64,000 nt of DNA, taken from positions 73,048 to 137,047 of the IMG/VR virus record IMGVR_UViG_3300031159_000070. One strand, written 5' to 3'. The stretch's first letter is position 1; each line of letters starts with the position of its first letter. This document shows positions 2,570-19,797 of the stretch, piece by piece. A program made the position numbers and the translations under genes. This DNA is from a virus. The notes below the pieces were generated by a model. That model was not told where the DNA came from and did not search any database. It was given only the letters and a program-made list of their open reading frames with translations.

Positions 2570-4123
2570 GTGCTCTCTGCCGCGCAGTGGCGGCAGCTCA
2601 ACGAACGTCCGCGCGACGTCGTTGATCTTCGGGCCGCGATAGATCGGACGCTCTGCGAGAAGTCGTTCTCGCATTTCGTGCGTCAGGCCTGGCCGTACAT
2701 CGATCCGGCGCACTACCTGCACAACTGGCACATCGATGCGATCGCCGAGCATCTTGAAGCGGTGATGCGCGGCGAGATCCGGCGGCTGCTCATCAACATC
2801 CCGCCGCGGTCGATGAAGAGCCTCATGTGCTCCGTCGCGTTCCCGGCCTACGTGTGGGCGCAGGAGCCGATCAAGGGGCCGGACGGCGTTCAGCTGCCGA
2901 CGTGCGGGCCCCACTGCCAGTTCTTCTATGCGTCCTATGCCGCAGAGCTGTCGACTGAGCACTCGGTCAAGACGCGCGATCTCATACTGTCGCCCTGGTA
3001 TCAGAGCCGCTGGGGCACTCGCTTCAAGCTCAAGGGCGACGCCAACCTAAAGACCAAGTTCGACAACGACAAAGGCGGCAAGCGTCTCGCCGCCTCGGTC
3101 GGCGGCATATCGACCGGTTTCGGCGGCGACATCATCGTCGTCGACGACCCGCACAACACCAAGACCTCGGAAAGCGACGTCGTCCGCGATGAGACGGTGC
3201 GCTGGTATTTCGAGGTTCTGCAAACCCGTCTCAACGATCCGAAGCGTGGCGCGTTCATCGTCGTCATGCAGCGCGTTCACGAACGTGACGTCGCTGGCGA
3301 GATCATCGCGCGAGAGGCAGGCTACGTTCATCTGTGCCTACCGGCGCGGTTCGAATCCGATCATCCGTTCGTGTGGGTCCGCGATCCGCGCGCCGTCGAG
3401 AACGGCGGGGAAGGGGACGGCCAGCTGCTCTGGCCAGAGCGCTTCGGCGAGAAGGAGCTCGAAGAGCTCGCCATCATGGGAGAGTACGGCGTCGCCGGCC
3501 AGCTGCAGCAACGTCCGGCTCCGCGCACCGGCGGCTTCTTCGAGACCGACAAGATCGAGGTCATCGATCACCTGCCGGTCGACGCAGACGGCAAGCCGAT
3601 CAAGATCGTCAAACGCGTAAGGGCCTGGGACCTCGCTGCCACCAAGGATATCGGCTCGCTTGACCCGAGCTGGACCGTCGGCGTCCTGATGGCCAAGGGC
3701 GAGAACGGTGTCTTCTACGTCGAGGACGTGCAGCGGTTCAGAGAGAACCCGCACGAGGTCGAGGTGCGCATTCGTCGGACTGCGCAGATCGACGGCCGTG
3801 ATGTCGAGATTTCGATTCCGAAAGATCCGGGTGCGGCCGGCAAGACGGTTGCTGAGCATCTCATCAGGATGCTCGCCGGCTTTATCGTCAAGGAAGAGCC
3901 GCAGTCAGCCGACAAGGCCCAGCGGGCCAAGCCGTTCGCTGCGCAGGTCGGCGGACGAAACGTGAAGCTCATCCGAGCCAGTTGGAACCGGGCGTACCTG
4001 GACGAGCTGCAGACGTTTCCTATGGGTCGGCATAATGACCAGGTCGACGCATCGGCGTCGGCTTTCAACCGGCTCGCTGATCCCGGCAAGATCGGCTTCA
4101 TCATCGGTGGTGGTCGCAGATAG
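2570..4123 (+). CDS. terL: Terminase large subunit
   Basis: LLINIPPRSMKS Walker A, IIVVDDP Walker B, QLQQRP, RAWDLAAT and FPMGRHNDQVDA nuclease motifs. Confidence 0.95.
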   Translation: MLSAAQWRQLNERPRDVVDLRAAIDRTLCEKSFSHFVRQAWPYIDPAHYLHNWHIDAIAEHLEAVMRGEIRRLLINIPPRSMKSLMCSVAFPAYVWAQEPIKGPDGVQLPTCGPHCQFFYASYAAELSTEHSVKTRDLILSPWYQSRWGTRFKLKGDANLKTKFDNDKGGKRLAASVGGISTGFGGDIIVVDDPHNTKTSESDVVRDETVRWYFEVLQTRLNDPKRGAFIVVMQRVHERDVAGEIIAREAGYVHLCLPARFESDHPFVWVRDPRAVENGGEGDGQLLWPERFGEKELEELAIMGEYGVAGQLQQRPAPRTGGFFETDKIEVIDHLPVDADGKPIKIVKRVRAWDLAATKDIGSLDPSWTVGVLMAKGENGVFYVEDVQRFRENPHEVEVRIRRTAQIDGRDVEISIPKDPGAAGKTVAEHLIRMLAGFIVKEEPQSADKAQRAKPFAAQVGGRNVKLIRASWNRAYLDELQTFPMGRHNDQVDASASAFNRLADPGKIGFIIGGGRR

Positions 4124-4164
4124 CGAAAAACAAGCCGCGAGCTGAGAACTCGTGAGCAAGTGTC

Positions 4165-4734
4165 ATGAGCAAGGATTGCACGTCGGTCTTCGAGGCCGAT
4201 TATGTTGCGCGGCAGCTTTGCACGAAAGCGCCGCTGGTCGAAGGCTGGCAATGGACTCGTCATCGCCGGCCGCCGCTGCCGTTCTACGAGAACCACGATC
4301 TGCTGCCCGCGGCGCATGGGTACTGCCGCATCTGCGCCGGACCTGTTTACGCCGACGGCGCGCATTTCGGCTCGCACCTGAGCAAGCGGACCTGGCACAA
4401 CATCTGCCTCAAGGCTTTCACGTTCTGGACGCAGCCCGACGCCAACGTGCTGGGTCCACGCCAGCAATGGGCGTGTGCGTCCTGTGGCAGAGATCTTTCG
4501 CGGGAGCGTTCGTCTGGCCCCTGTTTCGCTGACGTCGCCCAGGTCGACCATATCGTGCCGCTGTACCGCGTCTGGCGAGACCTCAGAGGCCTCCATTGGA
4601 CGGAGCTGCTTCACTACTGGTCGCCCGACAACTGTCAGGTGCTCTGCGTTGCCTGCCACAAACTCAAGTGTTCCGCTGAAGCCGGCGAGCGCGCCGCCTT
4701 CCGCGCCGATGGTCCGCAACTCGTCCTGATCTGA
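4165..4734 (+). CDS. HNH endonuclease
   Basis: CASCG...QVDHIVPL...NCQVLCVACHKLK. Confidence 0.85.
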   Translation: MSKDCTSVFEADYVARQLCTKAPLVEGWQWTRHRRPPLPFYENHDLLPAAHGYCRICAGPVYADGAHFGSHLSKRTWHNICLKAFTFWTQPDANVLGPRQQWACASCGRDLSRERSSGPCFADVAQVDHIVPLYRVWRDLRGLHWTELLHYWSPDNCQVLCVACHKLKCSAEAGERAAFRADGPQLVLI

Positions 4735-13404: not shown

Positions 13405-16400
13405 ATGCCGGATACTCGCCTCGACGAGCTCGTCAAGCACCGCATCGGGCTTGAGAGATACCAGACGAGCATTTTGCGCCAGGTCATCCCTGTGCTGCAC
13501 GACGCTGAACAGGATCTCGTGCAGATCATTCGCGAGAAGCTGTTCGATCCGCGTCTTACGCTGTCGGAGGCCCGTCGCCTCGAGACCACGCTGCGCATGG
13601 TGCGCAAAGCGCAGCTCGAGGCCTACGAAGTCATCTTCAAGCGACTGTGGAGCGAGTACCGCGGTCTGTCCGCCCATGAGGCAGACTGGGCGAAAAGCTA
13701 CTATCGCGATCTGTTCGCCGTCCAGCACAGCATCGAGGTGCCTTCGGCATCCATGCTTGTCGCCGCGGCTTTGGAGCGGCCGATGTCCGGCCGCCATCTC
13801 AAGGCCTGGGCCGACAAAATGACCGCCGAGCACATTGCCGAGGTCGAGCGGCAGATCAGGCTTGGCGTCATTGAAGGCGAGTCCATCGATCAGATGGTGC
13901 GCCGGCTCCGTGGCACCGAGGCCTTCCGGTTTCGCGATGGCGTGACGGCAAAGCAAAGGCGCAGTCTCGAGGCTCTGGTCCGCACGTCCGTCAACCACAT
14001 CACGAACGCAGCGCATCTGAGCTTTCTGCAGCAGAACCCCGAGGTCTTCAAGAAAGTCCAGTTCGTTGCGGTGCTCGACAACCGCACGACGCCGCGCTGC
14101 CGGTCGCTCTCAGGCCAGATCTTCGACGTCGATAAGGCGCCCGTCCCTCCCTTGCACGTCAACTGCCGTTCGACGCTGGTCGGGCTGCCGACGGCGCCGG
14201 ACGGCACACCGGCTGCTGAGCCGCTGGCCGATGTCTCATACGAGGAATGGCTTCGCGAGCAGCCGGTTGCGGTCCAGGAAGATGTGCTGGGCGTCGCCAA
14301 GGCCAAGCTCTTCCGCATCGGCGATCTCAAGCTCGATCGCTTTGTCGACCACACCGGCAAGGAGCTGACCCTCGATCAGCTGAAGCGTCAGGAGCGTGCC
14401 GCCTGGGAGCGTACGTTTCTGACCGCCGAAGATCGCCGCGCAATGTCCGTCATCCGACGCGTCAACAGCCTCGTCAACCGCGCGCCAGAGGACCTGAGGC
14501 CGCTGGCAGAGATCGGTCAGCGCGCCTGGCAGTTCCTGCGCTTTCATTCCAGTCAGTGGCTCGAGGCTGTCGCGACCCAATGGAGCCGGCCGGTTGATCC
14601 TGAGCTCGTCAGCCTCGTGTTCCTGCTCGATTTCTTCGATGGGCCGGTAACCGTCCAGCTCTACCGCTCATCGGCGTTCTGGCGCTCGATCATCCGCCGG
14701 GGATTGCGGCCGCGGCCGGCTCTTGTCTACCCTCATACCCGCATGCCGCGCGGGCTCATCGTGCATCCGACCGTGCGGCGTGTGCGCGGCGAGCTGTTCC
14801 CGCCGCCAGGTCGCTCACGCTCTCCGGTGCCCGTCGGTCCACGGCCGCGGCCGGGCGAAGGCATCATCATCGACATCGATCCGACCCGTCCACCGCAGCC
14901 ACCGACACCCAGGCCGATCGTTCCGCCCCGCCGGCCTGACAGCATCATTATCCCTCCGGGCCGCAGAGGGCCTGCAACACGACGGCCGCCTGCCGACATG
15001 CCGGTGCCACCACCGCGCGCGCCGGTGCCGACGGAGCGCCTGCCGCACGTCATGCGCGTCATCCCCGACAAGGGCGCCGAGGCGATCATCCCGAAGATCG
15101 CCGATGACGTGCAGTCGCTGCCGCCGCCGAGCCCGGTGCGCGTTCTGCCCTCGCCACAGCCAAGCCAGCTGCCGGCAAGAGTTCCGGCGCTCACCAACAA
15201 TCTTCCGGCACCCAAGAATCCGCTGCGCATCACGGTGCCTGAGCTCGAGGCCGAGCTCGATCGTCTGCTGCCCAAGGAAGGCGCTCGCTTCAATGTCGAG
15301 GATGCGTTGCGCAATCTCTGGAACGCGTTCAAGCAGCGCGGGCACGATGGCTTCGAGATCCTCGACAGCCAAGGCGTGCCGCGGGTCAGGATCGGCATCA
15401 ACGAGGATCAGCTCACCACGTTTCTCGACCGCTGGCGCGCGGCGCGTGCCGCCTTCGACCAAGCTCAGCGCCCGCTGCTGCCGGCTCCACCCGCACGTCC
15501 TGCGTTGCCCGGGGCAGCACGTGTCGCCGATCGGATCGAGGTGCGGCCGGGTGCGCAGGCGCCGAATGTCATTCATCTGCCCTATCGCCCGCCACCGCAC
15601 CCATTGCCGCCCCACGGCGTACCAGGCGATCTTGCGGCTGTGGCCAAGAACCAGCTTGGCAATGGTATCAGAGCCATCGAGGATCTGCCCAAGCCACGCG
15701 CGCGTCGCCGCGTGCCGCTTGCGCCCCGCATTGCCGCGCGCCGCGCGCGCGAGGCAGAGGCGCGCCGGCTTGTCGCCGAACAGCAGATCCGCGATCTGCT
15801 TGCCGAGCTCAATGAGATCAACGCCGGGCTGGAAGGCCTGCGTCCGATCTCACGCCAGCTGCAGGCGCGTGCCGACGTGCTGCAACGACTCACCTTGCAG
15901 AACAGGCTCGAAACGGACGTCACGGTCTATCGCCCCGTCCGCTGGGCGAACTTCGCCGAGCGTATGGGCCCGTCTCCGGCGCGACTCGATAAGGTCATCT
16001 TCGAGTCTCCGTCGTTCCTGAGCGGCACCGGGAACGAGATCACTGCCTTCGAGGCAGGTGCTCGCTTCGGCAAAGGGCCGCTTGTCGTCATGCGCATCAA
16101 CCTCAAGAAGGGCGACGTCGCCCTGGCAGGCAACCGTGAGGCGCATGAGCTGGTGCTGCCGGCAGGCTCCCGCCTCAAGGTGACGGCGGTGCGCCGCATG
16201 CGCGCTTCCGAGATTCCGGCCGATCTGCGCAATCTCTACCCGCAGAACCAGGAGTTCTGGCTGGCTGACATCGAGATGGTGCGGCCAGGAGATCCGGTCG
16301 ACCGTGCCATCACGGCCGCCCGCACGACCCAGCAGCGTTACGTCGACCGCATGCTGCGCACGCCGCTCGACAACGAGGCCGAGCAGGCCATGCGGCGCAC

Positions 16401-19400
16401 GCCATACGCTCCGTTCCGTCAGGTGGGTGAAGGCGTTGACGAGTGGCCGGTCTACGATCCGTCGTCCGGCGAGATGCTGGTCGGTCCGCCGAAAGCCCAT
16501 CCCATCATTGTCCTTGGCCGCGAGCAGCGTGCGATCGATCCGACGGATGCGGCATCGGCTCCGCTGTTCCGTCGGGCGCTGGGCACGCTCATCAATCGGT
16601 CCGGCCGTGCTCAGCCGTTGACGAATGAGATCGCCAAAGAGGCTGAGGAGATCGGCAATCGCTACGTCAAAGGCTTTTCTCTCGAGCGGTTCCTGCGCCG
16701 GCTCGATGCCGGCAATCTCTCGAAAGCGGATCGCTTTCTGCCTGAGCCGCGCGCCGACATCGTGCGCAAGGTGCGCGAGCTGATCGATGTCGATATGGAG
16801 CAATTCGGCGATGCCGCCGGGCCGCTCGGGCATGCGCTGCTGAAGAAGGATCCGGTGGCGTTCGCGCGCATGGTCTCGCAGCTGTCGGACGCGCGCATGA
16901 GCCAATACTTCCTCGACCGCGGCTATGATGCGACGCGCGCCGCAGTGGAGGGCGCGGAGCTCCAGCGTGGTGCCCGGCTGTTCGCTGAGCTGGTCGATGG
17001 CATCACCAAGGGCAAGGCGCGCGTCAAGTTCTACGACCTCGCCAACGTGGATGGAGCGCTCAGAACCTATCGTGGCAGAGAGCATCTGGCGCAGGCCTTT
17101 GAGGCTTGGTTCGCGCTGGAGTACAGCCCGAACCCGACCTGGCGCCGGATGATCGATCACATGATGCCTGGGCTGGACGAGGTGATGCGTCGGGTGCTGA
17201 GGGCGCGCTCGCGCGAGGCGTTCCCGGACGTGTGGGCGCCGACGCTGCGCATGGCCCACAACCGGCGCATCGTGGCCGATCCGCGCGCCATCGATGTCGA
17301 TCGTCTGACGTTTGAGCTGGAGGCGCCACCGGCCAGCATTGCCGCCGGCATACGCGAGAGCGTGCGGCAGCGGTTCTATGACTACCTCGAGGGCGAAGGG
17401 TCGCTCGCCAAGCGCGTTCACAACCAGATCGCCAAGGACCTCGGTATCTCGCGGCAGGATGTCGAGGTGCTGATCCGTGAAGCGCAGCGCGCGGGCTGGG
17501 TCAGGGCTCAGGGTCGCGGCTTCCGCGTGGTGCCGGCCGACAGGCGTCCGCCGCGCCCCGTCGGCACGCCGGCCATCTCCCCGACGCAGCATCAGCGCGA
17601 CCTATTCTACGACTATCTGGAAGGCAAGACCGGCGGCTCGGAGAAATCTCTCGGCTCGCTGAGCCAGGCTGCCTTGCGCGATCTGCAGCGCGAGATCGGC
17701 GCGACGCCGATACAGATGAGCCGCCTGACGTTTGAAGCGCAAGAGGTGGGCTGGCTCAAGCGCGATGCGCGCGGACAGCTCAGGCGCACATGGACCCGCG
17801 GTCTGGAGCGGACTGACAAGGCACCGCCGCCGCGGCCAAAGTCGCAAGATATCGAGCGGATCGAGGGGACACTTGGCACGCCTGCTGGTAGGATCGAACC
17901 GGCAGAGGCGCCGAAGCGACGGCGAGGTGACGATGGCGACTTTGGCGGAACTGGAGGCGCGGGAGAAGGACCTGCTGGGCCGGGCCCCCAAGGCGGAGGA
18001 CTATCCGAACCCGGAGGCCTTCGCGGAAGCGAGAGCGAGCTGGATCCGAACATACGGGCCAGCGCTGAGGATCCTCCGCTCAGAAATCTCCCGACGCAGA
18101 TCACAGTCCCGGGCCGCGGCAAGGTCACGTTCGGGCCGCTGAAGCAGGCGCGGCAAGCGGCAATCGACTACATGCGCGACGCGGGTCTGCCTTACAACCC
18201 GCCGCGCACCTACGTGAAAGTCGATCCGGCGCGTGCCAGGCGCATCGCCGAAGCCTATGAGGCGATGCCGCACAATCCCAACGATCCCGAGGTGAAGGCC
18301 GCCTTCAAGGCGATGATCGAGGAGACTCTGGCTCAGTATCAGTACATCAAGAAGACCGGTCTCAAGATCGAGATGATGGACCTCGATCAGCCCGACCCCT
18401 ATGCCGCTTCGCCGCGGCTCGCTCATCTCGACGTCATCGAGAACAACCACCTCTGGGTCTATCCGACGGACGCCGGCTTCGGATCGAATGCCGATTTCGA
18501 TGTCAGCGACAATCCGCTGATGCAGTTCACCGATGAGTACCTGAACGGCAAGCGCCTCAGGGCAAATGACGTGTTCCGCATCGTCCATGACTACTTCGGC
18601 CACTTCAAAGAGGGCGTCGGTTTCCGTGCAGATGGCGAGGAGAACGCGTGGCGCTCGCACAGCGCCATGTACTCGCCGCTCGCCCGGCGAGCGATGACGA
18701 CGGAGACGCGCGGACAGAACTCCTGGGTCAACTTTGGCCCGCACGGTGAGAAGAACCGCACGGCCAAGGCCGAAGATACGATCTTCGCCGACCAGAAAAC
18801 GGGCCTGCTCCCGCAATGGGTTGTTGACGAAGGCGCAGGCGATCCGCCGGACGTGACGCCCCCTGCGCAACCAGAGCCGACCCGAAACATTCTCGATCGG
18901 GCGCATCTCACAGAGCTTGTCCAGCGCATCGTCTCTGAAATGCGTGGTGTTCCGCTCGATCGCATCGCCCATCAGCGCCTCCCGGTGCGCACCGAGTCCG
19001 AACAGACGATGGTGAATGAGGTCTGGCGCCACGCCACGCTGTCGCCAGAGATCGAAAAGGTGATTTCAGGTGCCGAGTCCATCACGCTCTCTGAGCCGAC
19101 CGACGGGCCCACCTACTACGATCCTGTGACGGGAACGCTTGAGATCGGCCGGCGCAATCCTTCGGCGCCTCAGGACCGGGTCTGGATCCGCCACGAGTTC
19201 GGCCACCACCTCGACCTGCCGATGACGCCGGACGGAACGGTGGTGCAGTATTCGGCCGCGCCAGAGTTCGGCCTGGCCAAAGCGATGCAGGCCGATCTCG
19301 AGCAGCTGGCGCGCAGCTACGCGCCTGATGCGAAGGTCGTCCTGCGTGCCGAGTCCGCGCTGCAGCGGTTCAAGGATCGTTACGGGATCGATCTTGCGAA

Positions 19401-19797
19401 AAACGTCTCTGATATTGGGCTTGCGCATCGCATGGCTGAATACGCGTTGACCGGCAATGCGGCGTTCCTGAAGCTGGTTGACCAGGCCGTGCGGACTGGT
19501 GCGATCAGAGACGCCAAGATCGCCAGCGAGTTCATGGTCTATTCAGACTTGACGGCTGCGGTGACAAAGCTCAAGCTTGGCACCGGCCATCCTGAGACGT
19601 ACTTCGCCGGTGGATTTGATATCGGCGAGGGTTACACGAGTCGTCATGCCAATGAGGCATTCGCCAACTGGTTCGCGCTGCATTCGAGCGATGTGACCGG
19701 TTGGCGCCTGCTTATGCAGCAGTATTTCCCGCGCGTCGTGGAGTCCAATGCGTCGATCCTGGATCGCATGGGAGCCGATGCGCATGGCGAACAGTGA
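13405..19797 (+). CDS. MuF (phage Mu gpF / SPP1 gp7-like) minor head protein fused to ADP-ribosyltransferase-like, wHTH, HDYFGH and zincin domains
   Basis: LVRTSVNH..FVAVLDNRTTPRCRSLSG..PPLHVNCRSTLV (MuF); VYR..FLSGT..EAHELVLPAG (ART-like); HEFGH..EAFA (zincin). Confidence 0.9.
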   Translation: MPDTRLDELVKHRIGLERYQTSILRQVIPVLHDAEQDLVQIIREKLFDPRLTLSEARRLETTLRMVRKAQLEAYEVIFKRLWSEYRGLSAHEADWAKSYYRDLFAVQHSIEVPSASMLVAAALERPMSGRHLKAWADKMTAEHIAEVERQIRLGVIEGESIDQMVRRLRGTEAFRFRDGVTAKQRRSLEALVRTSVNHITNAAHLSFLQQNPEVFKKVQFVAVLDNRTTPRCRSLSGQIFDVDKAPVPPLHVNCRSTLVGLPTAPDGTPAAEPLADVSYEEWLREQPVAVQEDVLGVAKAKLFRIGDLKLDRFVDHTGKELTLDQLKRQERAAWERTFLTAEDRRAMSVIRRVNSLVNRAPEDLRPLAEIGQRAWQFLRFHSSQWLEAVATQWSRPVDPELVSLVFLLDFFDGPVTVQLYRSSAFWRSIIRRGLRPRPALVYPHTRMPRGLIVHPTVRRVRGELFPPPGRSRSPVPVGPRPRPGEGIIIDIDPTRPPQPPTPRPIVPPRRPDSIIIPPGRRGPATRRPPADMPVPPPRAPVPTERLPHVMRVIPDKGAEAIIPKIADDVQSLPPPSPVRVLPSPQPSQLPARVPALTNNLPAPKNPLRITVPELEAELDRLLPKEGARFNVEDALRNLWNAFKQRGHDGFEILDSQGVPRVRIGINEDQLTTFLDRWRAARAAFDQAQRPLLPAPPARPALPGAARVADRIEVRPGAQAPNVIHLPYRPPPHPLPPHGVPGDLAAVAKNQLGNGIRAIEDLPKPRARRRVPLAPRIAARRAREAEARRLVAEQQIRDLLAELNEINAGLEGLRPISRQLQARADVLQRLTLQNRLETDVTVYRPVRWANFAERMGPSPARLDKVIFESPSFLSGTGNEITAFEAGARFGKGPLVVMRINLKKGDVALAGNREAHELVLPAGSRLKVTAVRRMRASEIPADLRNLYPQNQEFWLADIEMVRPGDPVDRAITAARTTQQRYVDRMLRTPLDNEAEQAMRRTPYAPFRQVGEGVDEWPVYDPSSGEMLVGPPKAHPIIVLGREQRAIDPTDAASAPLFRRALGTLINRSGRAQPLTNEIAKEAEEIGNRYVKGFSLERFLRRLDAGNLSKADRFLPEPRADIVRKVRELIDVDMEQFGDAAGPLGHALLKKDPVAFARMVSQLSDARMSQYFLDRGYDATRAAVEGAELQRGARLFAELVDGITKGKARVKFYDLANVDGALRTYRGREHLAQAFEAWFALEYSPNPTWRRMIDHMMPGLDEVMRRVLRARSREAFPDVWAPTLRMAHNRRIVADPRAIDVDRLTFELEAPPASIAAGIRESVRQRFYDYLEGEGSLAKRVHNQIAKDLGISRQDVEVLIREAQRAGWVRAQGRGFRVVPADRRPPRPVGTPAISPTQHQRDLFYDYLEGKTGGSEKSLGSLSQAALRDLQREIGATPIQMSRLTFEAQEVGWLKRDARGQLRRTWTRGLERTDKAPPPRPKSQDIERIEGTLGTPAGRIEPAEAPKRRRGDDGDFGGTGGAGEGPAGPGPQGGGLSEPGGLRGSESELDPNIRASAEDPPLRNLPTQITVPGRGKVTFGPLKQARQAAIDYMRDAGLPYNPPRTYVKVDPARARRIAEAYEAMPHNPNDPEVKAAFKAMIEETLAQYQYIKKTGLKIEMMDLDQPDPYAASPRLAHLDVIENNHLWVYPTDAGFGSNADFDVSDNPLMQFTDEYLNGKRLRANDVFRIVHDYFGHFKEGVGFRADGEENAWRSHSAMYSPLARRAMTTETRGQNSWVNFGPHGEKNRTAKAEDTIFADQKTGLLPQWVVDEGAGDPPDVTPPAQPEPTRNILDRAHLTELVQRIVSEMRGVPLDRIAHQRLPVRTESEQTMVNEVWRHATLSPEIEKVISGAESITLSEPTDGPTYYDPVTGTLEIGRRNPSAPQDRVWIRHEFGHHLDLPMTPDGTVVQYSAAPEFGLAKAMQADLEQLARSYAPDAKVVLRAESALQRFKDRYGIDLAKNVSDIGLAHRMAEYALTGNAAFLKLVDQAVRTGAIRDAKIASEFMVYSDLTAAVTKLKLGTGHPETYFAGGFDIGEGYTSRHANEAFANWFALHSSDVTGWRLLMQQYFPRVVESNASILDRMGADAHGEQ
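17933..18142 (+). CDS. Putative overprinted (+1 frame) 69-aa gene nested in the MuF ORF
   Basis: GAGGTG SD then ATG; MATLAELEAREKDLLGRAPKAEDYPNPEAFAEARASWIRTYG; overlaps a Gly-rich linker of the main frame. Confidence 0.5.
   Translation: MATLAELEAREKDLLGRAPKAEDYPNPEAFAEARASWIRTYGPALRILRSEISRRRSQSRAAARSRSGR

Follow-up and report, generated by a model that had tools for sequence, protein, structure and literature searches.

A candidate overprinted gene in the linker preceding the HDYFGH domain of a viral MuF-domain polyprotein

The stretch of DNA analysed here, referred to as the window, comprises 64,000 nucleotides (nt) of the IMG/VR virus record IMGVR_UViG_3300031159_000070 (positions 73,048 to 137,047) and carries a giant gene encoding a MuF-domain polyvalent protein of 2130 amino acids (aa). 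Within this gene, on the same strand and in the +1 frame, a short open reading frame (ORF) at 17933-18142 is overprinted on the linker that leads into a domain with the motif HDYFGH. Judged by comparison with its homologues, the small ORF is very probably a real, conserved protein-coding gene, and its product is predicted to bind the neighbouring domain. The features on which the argument depends are the following, all on the + strand.

13405..19797, + strand: host gene for the 2130-aa MuF-domain polyvalent protein, main frame (ORF; Pfam match)
13840..14178, + strand: MuF (PF04233) domain, residues 146-258 of the host protein
17900..18129, + strand: main-frame linker under the nested gene, a Gly-rich filler that is open but unconserved as protein
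17924..17929, + strand: Shine-Dalgarno-like GAGGTG, whose GAGG ends 5 nt before the nested ATG (homologues have similar motifs)
17933..18142, + strand: candidate nested +1-frame gene, 69 codons plus TGA at 18140-18142 (switch in third-position GC content, leave-one-out profile, homologues)
17981..18076, + strand: conserved core of the nested protein, residues 17-48 with invariant P19, E32 and A33 (alignment A1), the part of the protein that is modelled touching the domain
18130..18870, + strand: HDYFGH domain, main frame, predicted binding partner of the nested protein (alignment A2, fold model, co-fold)

The host gene and its nested reading frame

The host ORF is 6393 nt long, and its product matches the Pfam family Phage_Mu_F at residues 146-258 (E = 3.5e-15; 57.2 bits vs a cut-off of 29.6). 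Further along the same protein, the segment at 17356-17526 of the window (aa 1334-1371 of the MuF protein) shows two similarities below the Pfam threshold, one with Tautomerase (E = 0.003), the other with wHTH-PRTase_assc (E = 0.028). The nested ORF lies wholly inside 13405-19797. Its beginning is ordered as GAGGTG at 17924-17929, then ACG, then ATG at 17933, which is how the initial annotation, made from the letters of the window, had read the opening of a 69-aa ORF in the +1 frame. The same annotation had described the main frame at this place as a low-complexity linker and had put the ORF immediately before the HDYFGH domain, and both descriptions agree with the Gly-rich main-frame reading and with a domain that begins at about 18130.

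The length of the nested ORF is not evidence for a gene, because the host gene holds longer alternative-frame ORFs of 432, 580 and 343 aa; the stop-to-stop +1 segment at the nested ORF measures 136-137 aa, and the local GC content is 0.65-0.69. Composition is more telling by position. The GC content at third codon positions (GC3) of the main frame stays near 0.8 along the host gene, drops to 0.50-0.55 at 17900-18080 and then recovers, and over the same interval the GC3 of the +1 frame climbs to 0.85-0.90 before it reverts. On GC3 alone, a compensated double frameshift or an assembly error would be as likely as overprinting; these candidates were later rejected through the starts and stops, the openness of the main frame and independent contigs, all described below. 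A second GC3 anomaly at 18800-18980 (0.80-0.90 in the +1 frame vs 0.55-0.70 in the main frame) was also considered and set aside as a compositional fluctuation only, the +1 frame there having stops and reading as junk.

The sequence of the nested peptide is recognizable by itself. A leave-one-out profile built from 24 homologous peptides, with that of the window withheld, finds the +1 segment of the window with E = 3.5e-11; this is the sole significant match among the 1363 six-frame segments of the 64-kb window, the next best having an E-value of 0.3.

Homologues, linkage to the domain and start signals

A search of viral contigs for the HDYFGH domain returned 236 relatives, the best 80 of which were kept as loci. 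Their DNA was examined by local tblastn and by translation of 270 nt around the domain start (240 nt upstream and 30 nt into the domain), and 25 nested peptides were combined in a profile alignment, A1. The hidden Markov model (HMM) of A1 matches 38 of the 80 domain-selected loci plus the window. All 39 matches are in the +1 frame relative to the domain and lie 0-330 nt upstream of it, and no significant match was found elsewhere in the 80 loci or in the window. The 28 distinct nested sequences form 13 clusters at an identity of at least 60%, and the loci that carry them range in GC content from 0.38 to 0.65. The +1 peptide, 42-69 aa long in the 28 distinct homologues and 69 aa in the window, is often a discrete ORF between +1 stops, and the main frame over it is open and reads as a variable Gly-rich filler. 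At two loci fetched through the peptide, L085 (about 3890-4189) and L087 (about 3880-4180), the nested +1 ORF is about 100 aa long and has an additional, conserved-looking helical N-terminal part, so that the overprinted region can reach twice its length in the window.

The ascertainment bias of choosing loci by their domain is removed by a peptide-only sub-alignment, A3, which fetched 12 viral loci, 10 of them on new contigs. In all 12, an ORF of 503-2616 codons contains the peptide in its +1 frame, and the HDYFGH domain begins 10-100 nt downstream. The expectation of the initial annotation that the nested gene travels with this domain is thus matched by every copy found, 38 of 38 in domain-selected and 12 of 12 in peptide-selected loci, each directly upstream of it. 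The motif that it had proposed for recognizing relatives, P-K-x-E-D-[YF]...E-A, is essentially the family consensus of A1, roughly P-x3-D-F-x3-E-x-Y-x-E-A-x3-[FW]-x-H-R.

A profile search of 1.84 billion representative proteins gave 331 matches at E <= 1e-3, 31 of them at E <= 1e-10, mostly 49-130 aa long. Many end in a tail such as S-K-D-S-P, which results when the conserved E-G-L-P at the opening of the main-frame domain is read in +1; therefore, these database proteins are nested ORFs that gene finders called on short contigs. The named copies among them are called only 'hypothetical protein'. In GenBank MW202675.1 (locus L093, 2834-2977), the nested +1 peptide (HMM E = 3e-21) lies inside the coding sequence of a hypothetical protein, and the nested ORF is unannotated. 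With 13 lineages among 28 distinct sequences and 331 database proteins, the nested family is neither young nor lineage-restricted. Simpler searches were less productive: tblastn of the 69-aa peptide found no match in named phages, exact 8-mer patterns drawn from the single peptide gave 220 pattern matches in viral contigs, none of them confirmed, by a method that is too insensitive, and Pfam had nothing above its cut-off for the nested peptide or for 10 longer proteins bearing the motif.

Each of the 28 distinct sequences has a start codon (25 ATG, 2 GTG and 1 TTG), 11-29 residues upstream of the core. A Shine-Dalgarno-like motif, defined as four or more nt of AGGAGG between -17 and -4, precedes 21 of the 28, a count that is somewhat inflated because the choice of start favoured candidates bearing such a motif, vs a background of 437 in 3401 (12.8%) at ATG triplets at large in the same loci. 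According to the initial annotation, an ORF and a Shine-Dalgarno sequence that were not kept in homologues, together with a lack of detected translation, would speak against a gene; the ORF is kept in the homologues, and a Shine-Dalgarno-like motif in most of them.

The start contexts also bear on the reading in which the nested peptide has no start of its own and is the C-terminal tail of a truncated MuF product made by programmed +1 ribosomal frameshifting. Its appeal is that some sequences have an open +1 frame over the 66-75 codons before the ATG (68 codons in the window). Moreover, Shine-Dalgarno-like elements can stimulate +1 shifts, as in the case of prfB. In 8 of the 28 sequences, however, a +1 stop stands 0-1 codons before the start, which leaves almost no room for frameshift entry, since a shift would need to fall at or after the start. 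The start codons occupy an equivalent place throughout, the spacing of the Shine-Dalgarno-like motifs is typical of initiation, and no conserved slippery site was seen by eye in the start contexts, for which no formal search was made. The pattern expected of frameshifting, entry from the main frame with no need for an independent start, was not what these sequences displayed, and this explanation is very improbable.

Selection in the two frames and independent contigs

Over one ungapped DNA block, pairwise amino-acid identity averages 0.397 in the +1 frame, vs 0.314 for the main frame and 0.322 for the third frame, which served as a control; the main frame is therefore no better conserved than a frame that is not read. 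Selection in both frames, a check that the initial annotation had proposed, was compared with a substitution test in which every nucleotide difference was assigned to a class according to what it changes in each of the two frames, and the counts were divided by the available sites. The pairs were chosen by nearest neighbour and minimum spanning tree in groups G1-G3 and represent 16 of the 28 distinct sequences. Eight of the 28, the window and loci L001, L006, L021, L023, L025, L048 and L062, have no close relative and stand outside the test, and group G4 was dropped from it as misaligned, with 81-102 differences in 150 nt.

In the overlap, changes that are synonymous in the +1 frame and nonsynonymous in the main frame are frequent (105 at 358 sites, or 0.29), whereas those synonymous in the main frame and nonsynonymous in the +1 frame are rarer (43/492, 0.087); those nonsynonymous in both come to 61/852 (0.072). 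The relation is reversed in a 300-nt control taken from the domain, where the corresponding values are 0.079 (63/793), 0.476 (337/708) and 0.067 (114/1703). The contrast between overlap and domain is highly significant (Fisher p = 5.9e-34), and the direction stays the same when G4 is included (0.376 vs 0.196 in the overlap, 0.127 vs 0.529 in the domain). Purifying selection thus shifts to the +1 frame within the overlap and returns to the main frame within the domain. The linkers of two other families of loci gave no clear preference for either frame in the same comparison, with 0.131 vs 0.104 in Family B (L020, L028, L031-L034 and others) and 0.42 vs 0.26 in Family C (L018, L024, L029, L044 and L072). 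In both families, the 30-180 nt upstream of the domain hold sequence that looks conserved in both frames.

The main frame is nevertheless not free to close. In every Family A locus the main ORF extends from 699 to more than 3000 nt upstream and at least 861 nt downstream of the domain start. When the synonymous codons of each +1 peptide were re-drawn from the codon usage of its own locus, the simulated probability that the main frame stays free of stops, given the peptide, was 0.000-0.36 per sequence. The context that would create a main-frame stop, a T at the third +1 position before AA, AG or GA codons, occurs 0 times in 472, vs 82.4 expected. Because this context is absent and the simulated openness is low, both frames are maintained, the +1 frame for its protein and the main frame for openness only.

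Contigs assembled independently from other metagenomes agree with the window. The contig from run X2 covers 17400-18346 with 0 differences and 0 gaps, those from run X3 cover 17413-18017 without a difference and 18015-18502 with 2 differences, and that from run X4 covers 17532-18180 with 1 difference. Indels are absent from the independent metagenome contigs across the region in every run, so the frame structure is not an artefact of assembly. The only variant inside the nested ORF is 18044 A>G (runs X3, X4 and X14), which changes Ile to Val in the +1 frame and Asp to Gly in the main frame; as a single observation on the sequence, it points the same way as the constraint on the +1 frame.

These results bear on the explanation that the ORF has no separate product and is a chance alternative-frame ORF of GC-rich DNA, a compensated double frameshift or an assembly error. 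This would fit the abundance of longer alternative-frame ORFs in the host gene and the second GC3 anomaly, which is meaningless. Chance would not produce purifying selection specific to one frame, conservation down to a GC content of 38%, or conserved starts and stops, and the contigs without indels speak against an error in assembly. A compensated frameshift, for its part, would not hold a +1 start and a pre-domain +1 stop in 13 lineages with the main frame selected to stay open. With selection, openness, starts, peptide-selected loci and contigs all against it, we regard this explanation as already refuted, and its remaining probability is minimal.

The predicted complex, its possible role and related systems

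The domain that follows the nested gene is itself distinctive. In A2, an alignment of 22 diverse loci, the mean column identity is 68%, which is unusually high for a phage protein, and the invariant residues include H153, D154 and H158 of the motif. Its fold is modelled with a mean predicted local distance difference test score (pLDDT) of 91.2 and a predicted template modelling score (pTM) of 0.89. Profile searches of the PDB gave no match below E = 0.33, and those of the Pfam and LPD families gave none at E <= 0.1 for the region. In the Atlas, the three top clusters go by the name 'hypothetical protein' and are 78-100% viral, and the only PHROGs family found, phrog_3170, carries no functional assignment. 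Among named phages the domain occurs in 211 records, 199 of them from Mycobacterium phages at about 32% identity (e.g., Cali gp102); nearly all of the 40 named-phage entries listed are hypothetical proteins, and one is called 'lysin'. By these comparisons, the domain appears to be virus-restricted and widespread, and has no detectable known fold or family.

The co-folding of peptide and domain, another check that the initial annotation had suggested, was carried out with the domain alignment A2 and the peptide alignment A1, alongside three controls. The interaction prediction score from aligned errors (ipSAE) was 0.91, 0.92 and 0.91, vs 0.00 for the best of the three controls. The pLDDT of the partner was at least 87, and at least 85% of the 107-110 contacts were common to the runs. 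The mark passed here is reached by 58 of 80 solved complexes and by 2 of 110 mismatched pairs, counts that are only a rough guide when custom alignments are used. This controlled model supports binding, and the nested protein probably binds the HDYFGH domain directly.

In the models, residues 14-21, 29 and 31-51 of the peptide form the interface, and in the contacts of lowest error peptide residues 32, 33, 35-37, 40, 41, 43 and 44 meet residues 91-98, 111-113 and 146 of the domain. These peptide residues belong to the conserved core, and the invariant E32 and A33 are among them. On the side of the domain, the interface also takes in residues 150, 154, 164-166, 196 and 200, and among its residues Y91, P95, R96, T113, N146, R150 and D154 are invariant in A2, the last being the Asp of the HDYFGH motif. 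Several interface residues are invariant even in loci without a match to the nested peptide, so that the peptide is modelled over a functionally conserved face and not over a surface kept only for the peptide.

Taken together, the best explanation, to which we give a probability of roughly 0.62, is that a real +1 gene is overprinted on the pre-domain linker and that its product binds the HDYFGH domain, with a cap resembling an inhibitor or immunity protein as the favoured, though less certain, role. During translation of the 2130-aa protein, ribosomes would read the overlap as an unconstrained Gly-rich linker, and those that start at the internal Shine-Dalgarno-like motif and ATG would make the small protein (69 aa in the window), the helical conserved core of which would bind the most conserved face of the domain, including the HDYFGH Asp. 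The small protein could act in trans as a cap that masks the effector domain in the producing cell, and it may stay behind once the MuF-anchored polyprotein has been packaged and injected. Its nesting in the adjacent linker would mean that recombination moving the domain also moves the partner, and perhaps also aids local assembly on the nascent domain. In the initial annotation, the ORF was an embedded inhibitor or immunity gene that moves with its cognate domain. Overprinting and linkage to the domain have been borne out, and the inhibitor or immunity role did not reach the same standing: it is plausible, with chances that we put somewhat below even.

The main rival grants both a real nested protein and its binding to the domain, but makes this protein an obligate subunit, a folding chaperone or an activator, perhaps co-packaged with the polyprotein. 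The evidence for a real gene and for binding serves this explanation equally well. A large interface of 107-110 contacts over invariant residues is just as much expected of a structural subunit, and a column identity of 68% is what an enzyme with a co-evolving partner might have. An obligate subunit, however, should not be dispensable, and the peptide profile finds nothing significant in 42 of the 80 loci with the domain (among them L030 and L052, which have too little upstream DNA to judge), yet these loci keep the interface residues. The escape would be an unrelated substitute, of which none was found, and those loci contain no in-frame copy of the motif either. We therefore consider the rival unlikely, although it is the strongest of those weighed.

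A further possibility is that the nested protein is an assembly or capsid-targeting adaptor, akin to a motif of scaffolding proteins, that links the HDYFGH polyprotein to the procapsid. Nine of the 25 peptides weakly match the 'head scaffolding protein' family phrog_8865 (best E = 0.003), all in one region of the profile, positions about 110-150 of 297. P0131, a protein of 377 aa with two in-frame copies of the motif, is 27-31% identical to annotated scaffolding proteins of Vibrio podophages (E = 2e-5 to 3e-6), and the host gene itself is a head-morphogenesis (MuF) gene. The matches are weak, however, and involve Glu-rich helices, so composition may contribute to them; the peptide of the window has no match to phrog_8865. 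Vibrio phages are missing from the organism tally of the 211 named records with the domain, the window has no second copy of the motif, its own head genes included, and the MuF domain already provides association with the head. An adaptor role is accordingly improbable. As observations apart, P0131 and phrog_8865 could represent an evolutionary source of the nested peptides or a functional link to them, and the motif is also found in frame in P0140 (Sphingomonas sp. RB1R13, WP_332749360.1, 490 aa) and P0067, joined to a Cys-rich module in a protein encoded on a bacterial chromosome.

Several results weigh against the capping explanation, in addition to the inflated count of Shine-Dalgarno-like motifs mentioned above. 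The phase-specific diversity of the whole family (0.464, 0.445 and 0.525) is only mildly skewed, the family being saturated, and the copy of the window, taken alone, is not individually significant in the openness analysis (P_open 0.17; 0 of 17 stop-creating contexts vs 1.7 expected). A 156-nt contig from X14, an RNA-seq PolyA library of a gut metagenome, covers 18003-18158 with one difference and includes just the core and the end of the nested ORF; apart from an unrelated piece it is all that this run contains, and it cannot show transcription. The loci without a match to the peptide, in which the interface residues are nevertheless invariant, mean that the domain is not universally dependent on this partner, and no nested copy was present in the two stretches of Mycobacterium phage Cali and of a Microcystis phage that were examined. 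With regard to the inhibitor role, Foldseek assigned no fold to the domain (best E 0.38), and VIA-align reached a Z of 2.8 at best, its weak rows including minimal zincin-type hydrolases (Z 2.0-2.8) that were not used as evidence. Finally, the in-frame motif of the scaffolding-like P0131 and the weak phrog_8865 matches are hints, from sequence similarity, of a role related to assembly.

The closest architectural analogue of the nested gene appears to be the pair Rz/Rz1 of phage lambda, two lysis proteins of comparable size, in which a small gene is wholly nested in the +1 frame of another gene and the two products bind each other. Both cases would combine complete out-of-frame nesting on the same strand, separate start signals and products that form a complex, which is here predicted. 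They differ in that the host is here a multidomain virion protein of 2130 aa, that the overlap is confined to an unconstrained linker and that the predicted partner follows directly as a domain of this polyprotein; the sequences are unrelated.

Among systems with MuF proteins, the polymorphic toxin-immunity pairs (Jamet et al., 2017), as far as the accessible part of that paper describes them, join an N-terminal MuF domain to C-terminal effectors and have a small ORF downstream of the toxin, the product of which is thought to neutralise the effector in the producer (PMC5576092). The host protein of the window resembles them in its N-terminal MuF domain, which scores above the Pfam gathering threshold. 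The likeness to these pairs is weakened by the position of the small ORF, which is not downstream but nested out of frame and upstream of an internal domain. Polyvalent proteins (Iyer et al., 2017), in the accessible part of the survey, are similarly giant multidomain proteins delivered with the virion, built from a MuF anchor and effector-like domains with linkers between them, and in that text the words 'overlapping' and 'frameshift' do not occur and 'embedded' occurs once (PMC5512222). Overprinted viral genes, in the part of a review available to us, likewise encode a second protein in an alternative frame with asymmetric selection between the frames (PMC8227390); in the present case the overprinted frame is the more constrained one and the older frame a spacer that is kept open. 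Term searches of the open-access literature, outside of which supplements fall, found no description of a gene nested in a MuF or polyvalent protein, which is not proof of absence.

The nested gene was previously unannotated, and it combines kinds of elements that are known, namely overprinted phage genes and effector-partner pairs. To our knowledge, few genes of tailed phages that are nested out of frame on the same strand withstand strict comparative tests, and such genes are discarded by annotation pipelines. Here both frames are demonstrably maintained, each for its own reason, and the nested product has a specific, testable candidate partner next door, which offers a handle on a widespread domain that seems restricted to viruses (236 viral-contig stretches and 211 named phage records).

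A broader proposal, which is possible but still rather tentative, is that polyvalent effectors carry 'effector plus antidote' cassettes: the antidote would be encoded out of frame in the linker before its cognate domain, mask the active face in the producing cell and be stripped at packaging or injection. If this is true, the sharing of DNA would ensure that domain shuffling between polyproteins always moves both partners. If it is general, regulators of injected effectors would be hidden systematically in the linkers of giant proteins of phages and plasmids, where annotation pipelines never look for nested genes. The finding suggests a general search for frame-switching selection in the linkers of polyvalent proteins, and it bears on the question of how injected effectors may stay harmless in the cell that produces them.

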